From: a virus
Taxonomy: Duplodnaviria > Caudoviricetes
Reading direction: 5' to 3' (one strand)
Virus record (IMG/VR): IMGVR_UViG_3300048590_000075
Location: 1 to 53,153 of that record
Length of the DNA stretch: 53,153 nt
Shown: positions 25,832 to 30,122 of the stretch, one piece after another
How positions within the stretch are numbered: the first letter of the stretch is position 1
How the letters are laid out: every line of letters starts with the position of its first letter
Notes under the pieces: generated by a model
What the model was told of the DNA's origin: nothing
Databases searched by the model: none
The model's input: only the letters and a program-made list of their open reading frames with translations
Program-made: the position numbers and the translations under genes

Positions 25832-26295
25832 TGGCGTCCCGCATTCTCCGCAACGCTGAGGACGTGGACGGCTTCGTCAAGCTCCTGTGCACACTCAAGC
25901 TGCCCCTCACCCTGTCATGGGTGCAGGGCGCGGACAGGAGCACGGAACAAAACGCGCTCATGTGGATGTGGGCGACCGAGGTTGCCGCGCAACTCGGCGA
26001 CCGCACCGTGTCCAGACAACAGGCCGAGTGGAAGTTGACCATCGGCGTGCCGATCCTTCGCGGCGACGACCCCGACTTCCGCGCCAAATACGACAAGTCG
26101 CTGCGCTGGCTGCCCTATGAGACCAAGCTCGACATCATGGAAGCCTTCTTCCCCGTCACCAGCCTCATGAAGGTGCGCCAGATGTGCCGCTTCCTCGACG
26201 GGGTCGAGCGGCAATGCCTTGGCATGGGCTTGTCCCTGACGCAGCCGTCCGACGATCTGGCGTCCTACAACCGCCGCTACGGGAAGGCCGCATGA
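25831..26295 (+). CDS. NinB-like protein
   Basis: RSTEQNALMW.W..EVA.Q..K...GVPIL..VTS.M. Confidence 0.7.
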   Translation: MASRILRNAEDVDGFVKLLCTLKLPLTLSWVQGADRSTEQNALMWMWATEVAAQLGDRTVSRQQAEWKLTIGVPILRGDDPDFRAKYDKSLRWLPYETKLDIMEAFFPVTSLMKVRQMCRFLDGVERQCLGMGLSLTQPSDDLASYNRRYGKAA

Positions 26296-26434
26296 CATTC
26301 CCCGCCCACATCATTCACGCCCCGCAGGCCAGCCGCACGGGCGGGCGGCGCACCCTGCGTAACGACATGAAGGCTCTGCCGACCGGGAGGCGCCTGGCTC
26401 TGGGCAGGCCAGGCTGCCAACATTGGAGGATGGC

Positions 26435-26812
26435 ATGACGCGCGCGCTCCCCGAGTGGATCGGCAAGACGCCGGACACGGCCATTCCCGCCCGCGTGCGG
26501 GTGCGGGTTTTCGAGCGCTACGGCGGCGTGTGCCAGGAGACCGGCCGCAAGATCGCCGCTGGCGAGACTTGGGACTGCGACCACGCGCTTGCCATCATCA
26601 ACGGCGGCGAGCACCGGGAAAGCAACCTGCGCCCCGTCCTGCGTGCCGCCCACCGCGCCAAGACGAAAGACGACGTGGCGATGAAGGCCAAGACGGCGCG
26701 GGTGCGGAAGAAGCACCTTGGGCTGGCGAAGGCCAGGTGCCCGCTCCCCGGCTCAAAGGCCAGCGGGTGGAAGCGAAAAATTTCAGGCGAGACAGTCAGG
26801 AGGGACGAATGA
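26435..26812 (+). CDS. HNH endonuclease
   Basis: VF.R..G.CQ..WDCDH..GG.H.ESNL. Confidence 0.85.
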   Translation: MTRALPEWIGKTPDTAIPARVRVRVFERYGGVCQETGRKIAAGETWDCDHALAIINGGEHRESNLRPVLRAAHRAKTKDDVAMKAKTARVRKKHLGLAKARCPLPGSKASGWKRKISGETVRRDE

Positions 26813-27048
26813 CAGACATTTCCGATCCGCTGACCGACGCGGATGCGCGCATCCGCAGTGCGCTGTGGGCGGCATGGCACGCGCTGGACAACATTGCCGA
26901 AGCGGCGGCGCACACCGTCGGCCAAGTCAGGATCGGCCCGGACGGCGAGGGCCAGGACTTCGCGGACGATCTTGAGGCGATCCGCGACGAAGCTAGCGCC
27001 GCCAGCGCCGCGATCAATGCGTTGATGTACCCTGGAGAGGCGGCATGA
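26809..27048 (+). CDS. Hypothetical protein
   Basis: ATGA-coupled. Confidence 0.6.
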   Translation: MTDISDPLTDADARIRSALWAAWHALDNIAEAAAHTVGQVRIGPDGEGQDFADDLEAIRDEASAASAAINALMYPGEAA

Positions 27049-27101
27049 GCGCCCGTGTCCTGATAGCGTGCGAAACCAGCGGGATCGTGCGGGAGGCATG
27101 A
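27045..27101 (+). pseudogene. 18-aa remnant of a different phage DNA methyltransferase N-terminus
   Basis: [18 protein letters not shown] matches the VL.ACE.SG.VR.A N-terminal motif. Confidence 0.6.
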
Positions 27102-28423
27102 CGAATGTGGTGCTACGTCCCAGAAACGGGCTCTCCCTCTGCGCAGGCGGCGGAGGCCTGGATATGGGCCTCATGCTCGCAGAGCCCGGATTTCACACCC
27201 GCTGCTTTGTCGAGTGGGAGGAATACCCCCGAGACGCCCTCATCGCCGCCCAGCGGGCCGGATACTTCGCGCCAGCCCCGATATGGGATGACCTCACCAC
27301 ATTCAACGGACGGCCATTCCGTGGCGCATTCGACACCATCCTTGCCGGATACCCGTGCCAGCCATTCAGCCATGCCGGGCAGCGGCGGGGCCACGACGAC
27401 GAGCGCCACCTGTGGCCCGACGTTGCCCGGATCGTCCGGGAAGTCGAACCGGAATGGGTATTCCTCGAAAACGTCGCCGGGCATGTCAGCCTCGGCGCAG
27501 AGACCGTGCTGCGAGAGCTACGAGAAATGGGTTTCACGCCTGCGGCTGGCCTCTTCTCAGCGGCTGAGACAGGCGCGCCGCATGAAAGGCTCCGCTGGTT
27601 CTGCGTGGCCCACCGCCGCCACGCGGGACCATCACGCGCAGGGGGCTGGGCACAACACGGCAGCGCAATCCGACAGTCTGGCGACGATGGTCGAGGCGAA
27701 GTGGCCCACGCCGATGGCGGGCACCCCGGCGCAGAACGGGAACAGCGCGGCGGGGAGCAGCGACTTCAGCCGGAAGGCGGAGGAGTTGGCGCGGGCGATG
27801 TGGGGCACCCCGCGCGCATCGGACGCGGAGAAGGGCGGGCCGAACCAGGCATTCGGAGCGGGCGGGACGCCCCTGCCGGCACAGGCAGCGCAATGGCCCA
27901 CTCCGATGGCCGGAACGCCAGCACAGAACGGCAACAGCGCGGCGGGGAGCAACGACTTCACCCGGAAAGCCGACCTTCTGGCGGCGGGTGTGCTGGCCTC
28001 GTCATGGCCGACGCCAGCGGCGCAGAACGTGAAGGGCAGTTCCGAGGGCAGCATCACGCGCGCGGATGGCAAGTCAAGGATGGACATCCTGCACTACCGC
28101 GCGGAGCAGGGCTTTTCCCACCCGGCCCCGGAGACGCAGCCGCATGGGCGGCCGTCCTCCGATCCTCGCCAGACATGGCGCCGGCTGCGGCGGCTCGTGA
28201 TCTCCACGCATGGGCGCGCCGTCTGGAAGCGGATGGCCGCGAGTGGTGGCAAGCGGAGGCTGAACCCGCTTTTTGTAGAATGGTTGATGGCCTTTCCCAT
28301 AGGTCACAGCCTTTGCGGCTTCTCGGGAACGCCGTCCACCCCCTCACCGCCGGCCTTGCATGGCGATCACTCGCCGCAGCGCACGGCCTCCAGCCAATCG
28401 ACCTCGGAGGAACTGAACGATGA
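27098..28423 (+). CDS. C5 cytosine methyltransferase, catalytic (alpha) frame
   Basis: Motif [44 protein letters not shown]; no motif IX in this frame. Confidence 0.92.
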
Positions 28424-28961
28424 TCGAGAAGACGTGCGCCCACTGCGGGGCGACCTTCCAAGCGGAGAGGGCGAGAAACAGATTCTGCGGGAAGCCGTGC
28501 CAGCACGCGGCGTCGAGGTCGGGAAAAGGCTACGTCCAGACGAGCGAGGGACTGGAACACCGGCTGGTCATGGAGGCCCATCTTGGCCGCAAGCTGCGCC
28601 GCGACGAGCACGTCCACCACAGGAACGAGGACAAGAGGGACAACCGTATCGAGAACCTGGAGTTGCTGACGGTTCGGGAGCACGCGAGTCTGCACAAGTC
28701 GAAGCACCCGAAGACGAAGACCTGCGTCGTCTGCGGCGAGACCTTCATCCCGCATCCGGAGACCCGAGGGCGGGTCAAGACGTGCTCGAAGGTCTGCCGC
28801 TACAAGTCGCAGGCGCGGTCGATGCTCGCGCGAGCTTCCTGACATGGCGGCGGCACATGCGTGGCGCACTTTGTCGGCTGCCCACGGCCTCCGGTGCGTG
28901 GATATGGGCGCCGCCGAAGGAGATGCCGAAGCCGGTGCAAATCGAGATGTTCGGAGGATGA
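27105..28961 (+). CDS. Overlapping-frame (beta) subunit of the C5 methyltransferase with TRD-like modules and motif IX
   Basis: 618-codon open +1 frame; five W(P/G)T modules; [15 protein letters not shown]; internal duplication diverges synonymously in this frame. Confidence 0.75.
28420..28842 (+). CDS. HNH endonuclease with Zn-ribbon domains, inserted in the methyltransferase 3' end
   Basis: [30 protein letters not shown]; CxxC..FC..C ribbons. Confidence 0.9.
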
Positions 28962-28969
28962 CGAAATGA
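28844..28969 (+). pseudogene. Orphaned original C-terminus of the alpha frame
   Basis: [17 protein letters not shown] vs [17 protein letters not shown]; same frame, 501 bp downstream. Confidence 0.75.
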
Positions 28970-29024
28970 CAGCACACCAATGGGGCGATCATGCCGCACG
29001 GGCCTATCAGCGGAGGGCGGCGTG

Positions 29025-29243
29025 ATGCGTTCTGACCTGCACGACCTGCCCGTGATCTACCAGCACATGACCGACCGCGCCGTCTGCGTGCGCGAGACCG
29101 AGGACGGCCCGGACATCTGGATCCCGCTCAGCCAGTGCGAGATCGCGCCGCGGGAGGCCGACCCCCTCGGCGGGCTGGCGCGCGGCCGGGTGGCGATCCT
29201 CACCGCACCCGAGCGGGTGCTCATGGAGAAGGGGCTGATATGA
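29025..29243 (+). CDS. Hypothetical protein
   Basis: T.RAV..WIP.SQ.E..PE..EKGLI pattern. Confidence 0.7.
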   Translation: MRSDLHDLPVIYQHMTDRAVCVRETEDGPDIWIPLSQCEIAPREADPLGGLARGRVAILTAPERVLMEKGLI

Positions 29244-29497
29244 AACTGCGCATCGCACTCCGCGCCGAAGGGAATTTCTGGAACGCCTATCTGGCGCTGC
29301 CCGACACGATGGACGGCGCGCAGATGATCGGCTCGATCGCGCTCGGCTCGGCCAAGCGGAACCCGAAGATCAAGCAACGCTTCATCGACCTCATGCAGAT
29401 GGTGTTTAAGGACGCACTGAAGACTCAGACGGGCGTGACGGCGGAAGAATTTACCATCGAGCGCGCGCCCGAGCACGAGCGCGCCGGGAACGCATGA
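29240..29497 (+). CDS. Hypothetical protein
   Basis: ATGA-coupled. Confidence 0.7.
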   Translation: MKLRIALRAEGNFWNAYLALPDTMDGAQMIGSIALGSAKRNPKIKQRFIDLMQMVFKDALKTQTGVTAEEFTIERAPEHERAGNA

Positions 29498-29862
29498 TGA
29501 CGCGCTATCGCATTCAGGACGCAGAGGGTCGCGGCCCGTGGCGCCCCGGCTTCTCGCATCGGTGGATCGACCCGATGAAAGATGACAGCCTCTGCCCGCC
29601 GATGATGATGGAATTCCCCGACTGGCGGAAGTGCGTGGCACAGCATCCGTGGGCTATCCATATCGGATGCTGCGTCGACGGCATGGCTGGCATTCATCGC
29701 TGGTTCACGCCGGGCGAATTGGCGCGTTTGCAAGGCCTTGGCTTTCACCTTGTGGACGCCACGGGTCTGACGCCGCTCATCATTGGCCGGAGCCAGATCA
29801 TCGGCGGGTCGCGCTTCCCGCTCGCCTATCTGCCGCGCGTCGAGTGGAGCATCGCCGCATGA
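29494..29862 (+). CDS. Hypothetical protein
   Basis: Coupled; YRIQD..GRGP motif. Confidence 0.65.
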   Translation: MMTRYRIQDAEGRGPWRPGFSHRWIDPMKDDSLCPPMMMEFPDWRKCVAQHPWAIHIGCCVDGMAGIHRWFTPGELARLQGLGFHLVDATGLTPLIIGRSQIIGGSRFPLAYLPRVEWSIAA

Positions 29863-30122
29863 CCCGCCTCGCCATCATCCTCGCGTGTCTCGCCACGCCC
29901 GCCGCCGCCGAGACGGTCTGCGTCCCCGGCGCCGACCTGACCGCCGCCGCGAAGGCCGAGGGCCTCGCGCTCACCTTCGAGGGCTTTCTCGCCGACGGCG
30001 CCGTGCTGATCTTCACCGCCCGCGACGGCGAGTGGGTGATGGTCATCCTCAAGGCCGATGGCAGCGCCTGCCCTGTGGCGGCGGGCGACGCCCACGACAT
30101 CACACTCGGGAGCCTGATGTGA
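29859..30122 (+). CDS. Small secreted protein
   Basis: Signal peptide ending ATPAAA-E; two Cys in the mature part. Confidence 0.65.
   Translation: MTRLAIILACLATPAAAETVCVPGADLTAAAKAEGLALTFEGFLADGAVLIFTARDGEWVMVILKADGSACPVAAGDAHDITLGSLM

Follow-up and report, generated by a model that had tools for sequence, protein, structure and literature searches.

A probable mobile HNH cassette in the doubly coded 3′ end of a phage DNA methylase gene read in two frames

Introduction

To our knowledge, homing endonucleases have been thought to survive within genes only by means of self-splicing introns or inteins. Free-standing endonucleases of the T4 type lie beside or in a conserved gene, are thought to cut the allele that lacks the endonuclease, and are copied in together with flanking DNA. 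Here we describe an HNH endonuclease gene situated at the end of a cytosine-C5 (C5) DNA methylase gene on a 53,153-nucleotide (nt) stretch of viral DNA (Duplodnaviria; Caudoviricetes; IMG/VR virus record IMGVR_UViG_3300048590_000075, positions 1 to 53,153). This whole stretch, which is the virus record itself, is referred to below as the window. The methylase is read in two overlapping frames, alpha and beta, and the HNH gene occupies the third. We consider it quite probable that the HNH gene belongs to a mobile cassette lodged in the doubly coded 3′ end of the methylase, that the two frames have been split over two copies of this end, and that the cassette has spread by gene conversion.

The closest described system is the ShiLan domain, an HNH endonuclease with zinc fingers that lies out of frame inside a mycobacteriophage methylase gene, leaves the host frame free of stops and has a disjunct distribution (PMC11855218). 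The domain lacks intron and intein features; its first 11 residues are similar to the host sequence that follows the insertion site, and the last four bases, TAAC, contain its stop codon. No ribosome binding site for the HNH was found by the authors, who proposed leaderless initiation (PMC11855218, Arsenault, Gosselin & Gogarten 2025). They present an out-of-frame HNH with read-through of the host gene as a third way, leaving open how the nuclease is translated and whether selection acts on read-through. The principle has already been published for mycobacteriophage methylases, as that report describes it, and is not new at the present locus.

The HNH protein of the window aligns within ShiLan gp65 (35.6% identity over residues 2-107, E 2e-10), in a frame two bases away from that of gp65, and tblastn places matches within methylase genes of Mantra, ShiLan, Bipolar and others (33-37% identity, E 1e-10 to 7e-13). 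Common to both elements are an HNH with zinc fingers in another frame, an open host frame, disjunct alleles and the lack of an intron or intein signature; in both, the insert begins with sequence like that of the host just past the insertion site, and the HNH stop falls within the last 4 nt (TAAC there; TGAC, TAAT and TAGA here). The host there is an N6/N4 methylase (PF01555) read in one frame, whereas here it is a C5 methylase (PF00145) read in two, with three frames in play. Here alpha is ended with a substitute 3′ end and only beta reads through, and 40 native nt are replaced, while nothing is replaced in ShiLan. The present HNH gene also has an ATG, a GGAGGA and a stop/start overlap, and so offers an answer to the open question of how a hidden HNH is translated. 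Finally, the phage here is proteobacterial and there an actinophage.

The two-frame design of the host gene recalls that of M.EcoHK31I. This C5 methylase has two chains, the beta chain being encoded within the alpha gene in a different frame, and needs both for activity (PMC2836561); the two enzymes were compared by description only. The published description assigns the target recognition domain (TRD) of M.EcoHK31I to alpha and gives beta as short and entirely internal. Here, in contrast, the WPTP repeats lie in beta, both open reading frames (ORFs) span the locus from neighbouring starts, and beta passes alpha motif X. Our literature search found no described family of two-frame phage C5 methylases.

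Substitute gene ends are known from mobile endonuclease ORFs of fungal mitochondria, which bring a foreign copy of the C-terminus into atp6 of Allomyces macrogynus and into atp6, atp9, cox2 and nad3 of Glomus (PMC3630166). The order there is the same as here (substitute C-terminus, endonuclease ORF, displaced native C-terminus), the native copy is close to uninvaded relatives, and the inserted copy is divergent as DNA and similar as protein. The fungal cases differ in that the enzymes are of the LAGLIDADG or GIY-YIG type, reside in organelles and in single-frame host genes, and are often in phase; the native end is described there as a dead remnant, whereas here it is probably still coding in the second frame. 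A literature search, which did not extend to supplements or to the ShiLan repository, found no phage example combining an endonuclease, a substitute gene end and a displaced native end. The T4 seg and mob genes, described as free-standing phage homing endonucleases with intronless homing (PMC2790892), resemble the window HNH gene as stand-alone endonuclease ORFs at a conserved gene, but lie between genes or split a gene, with no overlap of host frames and no substitute gene end.

Results

Organization of the locus

Four plus-strand ORFs converge at 27.1-29.0 kb of the window. The features of the locus are the following.

27098..28423 (open from 27068), plus strand, frame 2: alpha ORF, a C5 DNA methylase with motifs I-VIII, a linker, FPPGP...motif X (LLGNAV) and the stop
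27105..28961, plus strand, frame 0: beta ORF, +1 relative to alpha
27091..27112, plus strand: start region common to alpha and beta, with GGGAGG at 27091-27096 and the beta ATG at 27105, 8 nt behind
28420..28842, plus strand, frame 1: HNH endonuclease gene, 140 amino acids (aa), HNH_3 core
28406..28411, plus strand: Shine-Dalgarno sequence GGAGGA within the last codons of alpha, 8 nt before the HNH ATG
28303..28423, plus strand: 5′ part of the cassette, an apparently imported and recoded alpha 3′ end from motif X to the stop, serving as linker in the beta frame
28150..28844, plus strand: tract differing between the forms with and without HNH (HNH+ and HNH-), 695 nt here versus 194 other letters in the empty form
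28845..28961, plus strand: native methylase 3′ end displaced by the cassette, the conserved C-terminus of beta and a remnant in the alpha frame
28844-28969, plus strand, frame 2: tail ORF of 41 codons, a remnant in the alpha frame

As the initial annotation had proposed, all three plus-strand frames are in use, frame 2 by alpha and the tail, frame 0 by beta and frame 1 by the HNH gene, and the extent of the beta ORF (27105-28961) agrees with its claim that beta stays open across the whole HNH gene to 28961. Candidate starts for alpha are ATG 27098, GTG 27107 and GTG 27110. Paired starts a few nt apart also occur in the related loci L009, L022 and L034, and the alpha and beta ORFs would use one ribosome binding site. 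A beta start at ATG 27582, inside alpha motif VIII, was considered and dropped, as this ATG is missing in several relatives and the frame is open from the 5′ end; on these grounds we prefer a 5′ start for beta.

The HNH protein matches PF13392 (E 6.6e-13) and 24 PHROG families, mostly named HNH endonuclease. Two zinc-finger-like CxxC...C..C pairs flank the HNH core, and the CxxC pairs are invariant. Four HNH+ alleles are available, in the window, L009, L022 and L045 (a Sinirhodobacter populi contig); the four cassettes have 48-66% HNH amino-acid identity and ~65% nt identity. In all four, alpha stops soon after HGL(Q/H/E), the ends in the other three being ...GAHGLQGIVK, ...AAHGLHQ and ...SAHGLEPCF, while the alpha of empty alleles extends 12-30 residues further, through ..VDL... 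The HNH ATG overlaps the alpha stop as ATGA in the window, L009 and L022, and the overlap is 11 nt in L045. HNH translation is probably coupled to that of alpha through the ATGA and the GGAGGA. In three of the four alleles the HNH stop lies at most 4 nt from a native (C/T)TGGCAGC, in the contexts TGAC, TAAT and TAGA.

The alpha C-terminus had been reported to recur 501 bp further on in the same frame. This is borne out: over the 69 nt that pair 28343-28411 with 28844-28912, exactly 501 nt (167 codons) apart, nt identity is 56.5%. Between 69-nt windows shifted by 300-799 nt within 27100-28400 the background identity is 28.2% +/- 5.6%, and 3 of 93,000 comparisons reach 56.5%. At the protein level 12 of 20 residues are identical (counted by eye), and blastn-short between the two copies found just one 10-nt exact match. 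The upstream copy retains the alpha motif LLGN(A/G)VxP(L/I)(T/C)A in different codons (for example GGA GTT to GCC GTC) and is without the beta-frame EFxxWQxxMRGAL, which is present there in all HNH-less alleles. These changed codons and the lost beta motif support the earlier view that the segment is recoded. Directly after the HNH gene, the beta frame reads S(F/Y)xxW(Q/R/L)R.. in place of the lost EFxxWQ. The ATG at 28844 that opens the tail ORF in the alpha frame was not found in L009, L022 or L045, which suggests that the tail matters in the beta frame and not in the alpha frame.

The segment from ~28270 had also been described as AT-richer. This is weakly true in the window, where the GC fraction is 0.647 for 28298-28843, 0.681 in the methylase body and 0.648 downstream, and clear in the three related HNH+ alleles L009, L022 and L045, whose cassettes are at 0.571, 0.536 and 0.533 versus 0.62-0.67 in the flanks (8-14 points lower). 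The left edge of ~28270 proved inexact: the core starts at ~28303 by the L009/L021 register described below, and the contigs of sequencing runs place the edge at 28150.

Empty alleles and junctions

The HNH-less locus L003 is syntenic with the window, and its native alpha end nearly equals the window tail. Window positions 28845-29029 are 89.7% identical to L003 5271-5455 over 185 nt, and the pre-HNH copy also aligns to L003 5271-5317, less well. Judged from these alignments, the tail is the native 3′ end and the pre-HNH end is the imported, recoded one, so that the HNH gene did arrive with a replacement 3′ end, as had been claimed.

The junctions are best seen between L009 (HNH+) and L021 (HNH-), which are 90-95% identical. 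The two split sharply after ...GTGCTTTCCGCCCG, just past beta LMCFPP and just before alpha motif X, and rejoin at TTGGCAGCGGG; between the junctions, 40 native nt (L021 788-827) are swapped for 538 nt in L009. The core cassette of the window extends over ~28303-28844, about 541 nt for 40 native nt. The earlier reading that the HNH gene invaded the methylase thus stands as regards insertion, yet native sequence was replaced and the event was not a simple insertion. L009 and L021 are opposite ends of a single IMG/VR contig, 3300024344_000042 (40,231 nt), and further on their identity is 75.6%; this contig may be an assembly running from one strain into another, not a true repeat.

The sampled words of 27900-29300 are present at a share of roughly 0.6 in about 14 wastewater and activated-sludge runs. 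Four runs were examined as contigs only, for which depth and uncovered parts are uninformative. In DNA run X3, record 28 is an unbroken HNH+ contig over 28078-28962 (depth 18), and in record 26 position 28149 is linked to 28845 through 194 other letters (depth 25.7). As 28344 minus 28150 is 194, this is the exact length expected of the empty allele. In run X1, a single difference separates record 7 from the window over 28151-28867, and record 6 departs from the window at 28149, its next 30 letters being the same, by eye, as L003 5077-5106. HNH+ and HNH- forms coexist in wastewater, and the variable tract starts at 28150. Such a start fits co-conversion of a flank of ~150 nt; a mosaic boundary would look alike. 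An empty allele joining motif X to the 28844-28969 tail, as foreseen in the initial annotation, is found in L003, in L021 and in the X3 contig.

Further polymorphism was seen nearby. A 468-nt block at window 29030-29497, with two small ORFs (~29025-29243 and 29240-29497), is missing from L003, whose match resumes at window 29498 straight after 5455. A contig of X3 also skips the block (joint 29026 to 29502), a second presence/absence polymorphism downstream. A contig of the RNA-library run X15 joins 27099 to 28972, as if the methylase-HNH module were missing; with 30 letters on its shorter side this joint is weak.

The beta frame across the HNH gene

All four HNH+ alleles have 0 stops in the beta frame across the HNH gene. 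The stops expected were estimated from 20,000 synonymous-codon shuffles per allele, with the following results.

Window: mean beta-frame stops in shuffles 1.78; share with none 0.116
L009: mean beta-frame stops in shuffles 5.32; share with none 0.001
L022: mean beta-frame stops in shuffles 6.57; share with none 0.000 as printed
L045: mean beta-frame stops in shuffles 5.85; share with none 0.000 as printed

The alpha frame across the HNH gene has 2, 6, 6 and 7 stops (window, L009, L022 and L045), close to the chance expectation. By this test the lower-GC cassettes could not stay open in the beta frame by chance. The absence of beta-frame stops where 1.8-6.6 are expected suggests that the tail is probably still the working C-terminus of beta and not a dead remnant. 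The tail is native, but probably not dead, and the claim that both overlapping host frames are preserved receives statistical support (0 beta stops across the HNH gene in 4 of 4 alleles).

The same counts bear on a passive origin of the arrangement, in which a methylase 3′ end and a downstream HNH gene were joined by illegitimate crossover, the tail is decaying, no homing takes place and the open beta frame has no function. Such mosaicism would agree with the methylase body being ~75% identical to L003 when the flanks are at 90-93%, with the short-form HNH genes that simply follow related methylases without a remnant (L145, L069, L148), and with the P of 0.116 for the open beta frame of the window taken by itself. 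Yet one junction design recurs in four alleles whose N-domains are not closest kin, relatives at 51-56% GC have no beta stop across the HNH gene against an expectation of 5.3-6.6, and it is the beta-frame motif that is kept after the HNH gene, the alpha-frame remnant not being kept as an ORF. We regard passive mosaicism as unlikely, and the mobile cassette with split frames as the better account of the open beta frame.

A different HNH gene lies in the third frame inside the alpha linker, directly after the beta stop, at L034:3164-3556 and L154:2958-3374. The nested HNH of L154 matches PF01844 (E 2.7e-5), and that of L034 has only weak HNH_3 and HNH_2 matches. The alpha frame across these genes has 0 stops versus 5.3 and 4.5 expected in L034 and L154 (share with none 0.0000 as printed and 0.0022). 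From these counts, L034 and L154 seem to show, independently of the cassette, a host frame that has been kept open across a nuclease gene nested in it.

A methylase read in two frames

Alpha residues 22-185 match PF00145 (E 2e-32) and residues 21-438 match phrog_363 (E 4.7e-56); the alpha linker after motif VIII is the off-frame reading of the beta WPTP region. Beta matches phrog_27243 (E 6.5e-64), a family with no assigned function, and the DNA methyltransferase family phrog_1008 (E 9.6e-28, profile positions 127-279 of 329). Its N-terminal part overprints the alpha catalytic domain, and the protein is not conserved there. The functional part of beta runs from ~27582 and comprises the WPTP repeats, the LNPxFVEWLMG motif and, past the HNH read-through, a conserved tail ending in EMFGG. 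Motif names were assigned by eye from translations.

The two-frame pattern is present in nearly all of 31 related IMG/VR loci found by tblastn with alpha and beta: motifs I-VIII lie in one frame, the WPTP repeats and LNPxFVEWLMG(W/F)P in +1, and motif X back in the first. A sequencing error or one-off pseudogene is ruled out, as the frame pattern recurs in more than 20 loci. As in enzymes of the M.EcoHK31I type, alpha carries motifs I-VIII together with motif X, and the motif IX region lies in the other-frame ORF. In GenBank, Xanthomonas phage PhiXhv-18 has two overlapping coding sequences in +1 register, both named DNA methyltransferase. Throughout the family (window 27098-28961; L003-L024, L034, L069, L145, L148), two frames are open from neighbouring starts to the end, even at 50% GC. 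In L015:1186-2542 the alpha match is divided between frames (1186-2343 in one, 2339-2542 in the other) alongside a short beta ORF, a pattern that may be a real frameshift or an assembly error.

Codon-position entropy was calculated on 14 HNH-less loci; L015 (frames split), L019/L020, L021, L023, L024 and the more distant L025-L033 were excluded. Over the first ~540 nt the alpha third codon position is the most variable, and in the middle of the gene the beta third position. Over the last ~135 nt the third positions of alpha and beta are both variable and the alpha second position is the most conserved, as expected if both frames are constrained. Stop counts give a similar picture. Across the alpha N-domain the beta frame has 0 stops versus 3.1-4.5 expected (synonymous shuffles, P 0.0008-0.0098), and this openness holds in loci at 50-55% GC too. 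Across the beta repeat/TRD region the alpha frame has 0 stops versus ~4 expected (P 0.006), and the third frame of the methylase has 3-10 stops, as expected. At the 3′ end, the beta motif (E/A)(F/W)xxWQxxMRGALSxLPTASGPWIW...Q.EMF is conserved in 20 aligned relatives and overlaps alpha LRLLGNGVCPLAAxxAWRxLxxAHGL. In HNH-less alleles the last ~130 nt thus encode alpha motif X and the beta tail together, and the DNA is very conserved there because it is doubly coded.

These data also bear on whether the methylase is a single polypeptide that depends on two programmed frameshifts, +1 following motif VIII and -1 preceding motif X; the open beta frame through the HNH gene would then be irrelevant. 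Joining alpha, beta and alpha again does yield the canonical order of motifs I-VIII, TRD, IX and X, and single-frame related methylases exist, as the phrog_1008 match to beta (positions 127-279 of 329) indicates. Against this, both frames are stop-free over the whole locus, including parts that would never be read in the frameshift model, one stretch of ~130 nt shows conservation of alpha motif X and of the beta tail alike, and the HNH gene keeps the beta frame open; M.EcoHK31I, moreover, is described as a proven two-chain precedent (PMC2836561). Double frameshifting appears to us quite unlikely.

A model of the alpha and beta complex was compared with controls. The interface score ipSAE was 0.89 in 3 runs, versus 0.00 for the best of 3 controls; 58 of 80 solved complexes attain the mark applied to this score, as do 2 of 110 mismatched pairs. 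At least 36% of the contacts agreed between runs, with a predicted local distance difference test score (pLDDT) of 46-47 for the partner. The modelled interface involves beta 139-247 and 411-441 (28812-28904, after the HNH gene) and none of 248-410. The model supports binding between alpha and beta, although its score may reflect mere likeness to solved single-chain C5 methylases. Alpha and beta are presumably separate polypeptides that assemble.

The putative recognition region of beta is itself variable. The repeat unit is duplicated (window 27616-27800 and 27700-27985), contigs of three runs skip ~180-250 nt in the repeats (joints 27616 to ~27798 and 27643 to 27893), and the number of WPTP units differs among relatives. 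The skips and the differing counts indicate that repeat number varies in this region.

Distribution, mobility and splicing

A maximum-likelihood tree was built from 35 rows of the alpha N-domain; L065, L066, L067, L020, L026 and L027 were excluded as repeats, and L021 and L152 as too short. On this tree, where the HNH+ label requires 4 changes, empty alleles are the sisters of two filled ones, L003 of the window (support 99/96) and L016 of L009 (100/93); a single HNH+ clade is rejected by the approximately unbiased (AU) test (p 0.0026). Compared with the ShiLan type, the insertion is likewise present and absent in close alleles (L009/L021, window/L003, X3, AU p 0.0026) and a homologous HNH with zinc-finger motifs lies in an alternate frame; an open host frame is found for beta (0 stops, 4 of 4 alleles) and not for alpha, which ends at 28423 and has 2-7 stops.

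Two of the 31 methylase loci carry the cassette. A metagenome scan with an alignment of the four HNH proteins gave 80 loci, 8 of them with an alpha or beta match, and L145, L148, L152 and L154 were examined in detail; no closer full-length cassette was found among the 80. Shorter HNH relatives lie directly downstream of related two-frame methylases, with no remnant, in L145, L069 and L148, and one gene away in L034. From their position, these short forms may represent the free-standing state ancestral to the cassette. At L152:2998-3779, on a metagenome contig of 70% GC, a methylase N-domain match (55% identity to alpha residues 20-142) ends at ~142, and a short-form HNH follows within ~130 nt; this may be an HNH at another position or a truncated gene.

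The window carries a second HNH gene at 26423-26812, two genes upstream of the methylase (phrog_333, E 6.3e-20; a weak PF01844 match that stays under the Pfam threshold). At the DNA level it resembles HNH genes from phages of Paracoccus, Sinorhizobium, Rhizobium and Bradyrhizobium, a hint of an alphaproteobacterial host.

The distribution also has to be weighed against a domesticated HNH that serves the methylase or the phage, for instance as a nuclease that attacks unmethylated DNA or as a packaging factor, and is not a selfish homing enzyme. The ATGA overlap ties the HNH gene tightly to methylase translation, HNH genes beside methylases are frequent in the family, and phage HNH proteins with known packaging roles are mentioned in PMC11855218. 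However, a cassette carried by 2 of 31 methylase loci and scattered among them, present and absent within one run, foreign-looking in its GC and residing in a phage that already has another HNH gene (26423-26812) hardly has the appearance of a domesticated function, and we judge domestication very unlikely.

No group I/II intron or intein was recognised. Over 26000-30000 there was no Rfam match to an intron family at E<=1, and two chance-level matches lay elsewhere. A contig from the RNA library X15 spans 28161-29001 unbroken and unspliced through the HNH gene. Intein features are lacking, since alpha stops before the HNH gene and the HNH gene lies in another frame; intein blocks were not formally searched. 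That the insert is nevertheless spliced out, so that no read-through is needed, finds some encouragement in the resemblance of its 5′ end to the sequence after the insertion site, a trait that the ShiLan authors called intron-like (PMC11855218). Splicing could not restore alpha, though, as the 40 native nt encoding motif X are gone, and together with the absence of an intron family match, the unspliced RNA-library contig and the alpha stop before an HNH gene in another frame, this leaves splicing scarcely credible. The original description of the element as non-splicing is supported by the intron search and by the RNA-library contig.

Discussion

The observations are, in our opinion, probably best accounted for by a mobile HNH cassette. 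In the proposed mechanism, the cassette would replace 40 native nt with ~541 nt that consist of a recoded alpha end with its stop and a third-frame HNH gene whose stop abuts native sequence. The doubly coded overlap would thereby be split into two singly coded copies, the upstream one serving alpha and the native downstream one serving beta. Beta would read through the whole HNH gene as a linker of ~165 aa, and because it must read through to the native tail the cassette would be kept free of beta-frame stops. The element would spread between methylase alleles by gene conversion, most likely after cleavage of the conserved empty site by the HNH enzyme. The filled allele has lost this site, and its recoding would give it immunity to the cut. 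The signs of such homing are indirect: filled and empty alleles with common flanks, a variable tract reaching into the flank (28150-28302), the scattered distribution and the missing 40-nt native site.

Several points weigh against this interpretation. The open beta frame of the window is not significant by itself (P 0.116), so that the case rests on the three lower-GC relatives, and the four alleles share ancestry and are not independent trials. Four full cassettes were found in four collection scans, and these are old (48-66% aa identity), which makes present-day activity uncertain. The left edge in the window takes two values, 28150 (run contigs) and ~28303 (L009/L021 register). Beta modelled alone in AlphaFold2 from a 20-row alignment reached a mean pLDDT of 47.5 and a predicted template modelling score of 0.24, and with so poor a model the reading of the insert as a disordered linker is not established. 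The X15 contig may stem from DNA in the RNA library. Conservation of the tail after the HNH gene could reflect fresh native sequence left by each conversion; tail conservation alone proves little, and the absence of stops from the cassette counts for more.

The finding is a real one, which the initial annotation read essentially correctly, and a variant of the ShiLan kind with an added layer: three frames are involved, and a doubly coded overlap is split into two copies. It bears on both questions raised by the mycobacteriophage element. For translation of the HNH, a ribosome site is clearly present and the HNH start overlaps the stop of the host gene, and for selection on read-through the locus has a measurable lack of stops across four diverged alleles. 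It thus provides usable material for testing read-through nesting of homing endonucleases, and shows how a mobile element could enter a doubly coded stretch through duplication, with one copy per frame.

If the interpretation is true, ~420 nt would be translated in two frames, as HNH and as beta, beside ~120 nt that serve as alpha end and as beta linker, and the HNH genes in the alpha linker of L034 and L154 would represent the same trick, arrived at independently. More broadly, this family of phage C5 methylases may consist of two full-length overlapping chains, each with tolerated "junk", and so form a haven for non-splicing, third-frame homing endonucleases, read-through nesting being a third general route beside introns and inteins; we find this wider proposal evenly balanced. 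The host methylase family itself would be a widespread natural case of long same-strand overlapping phage genes.

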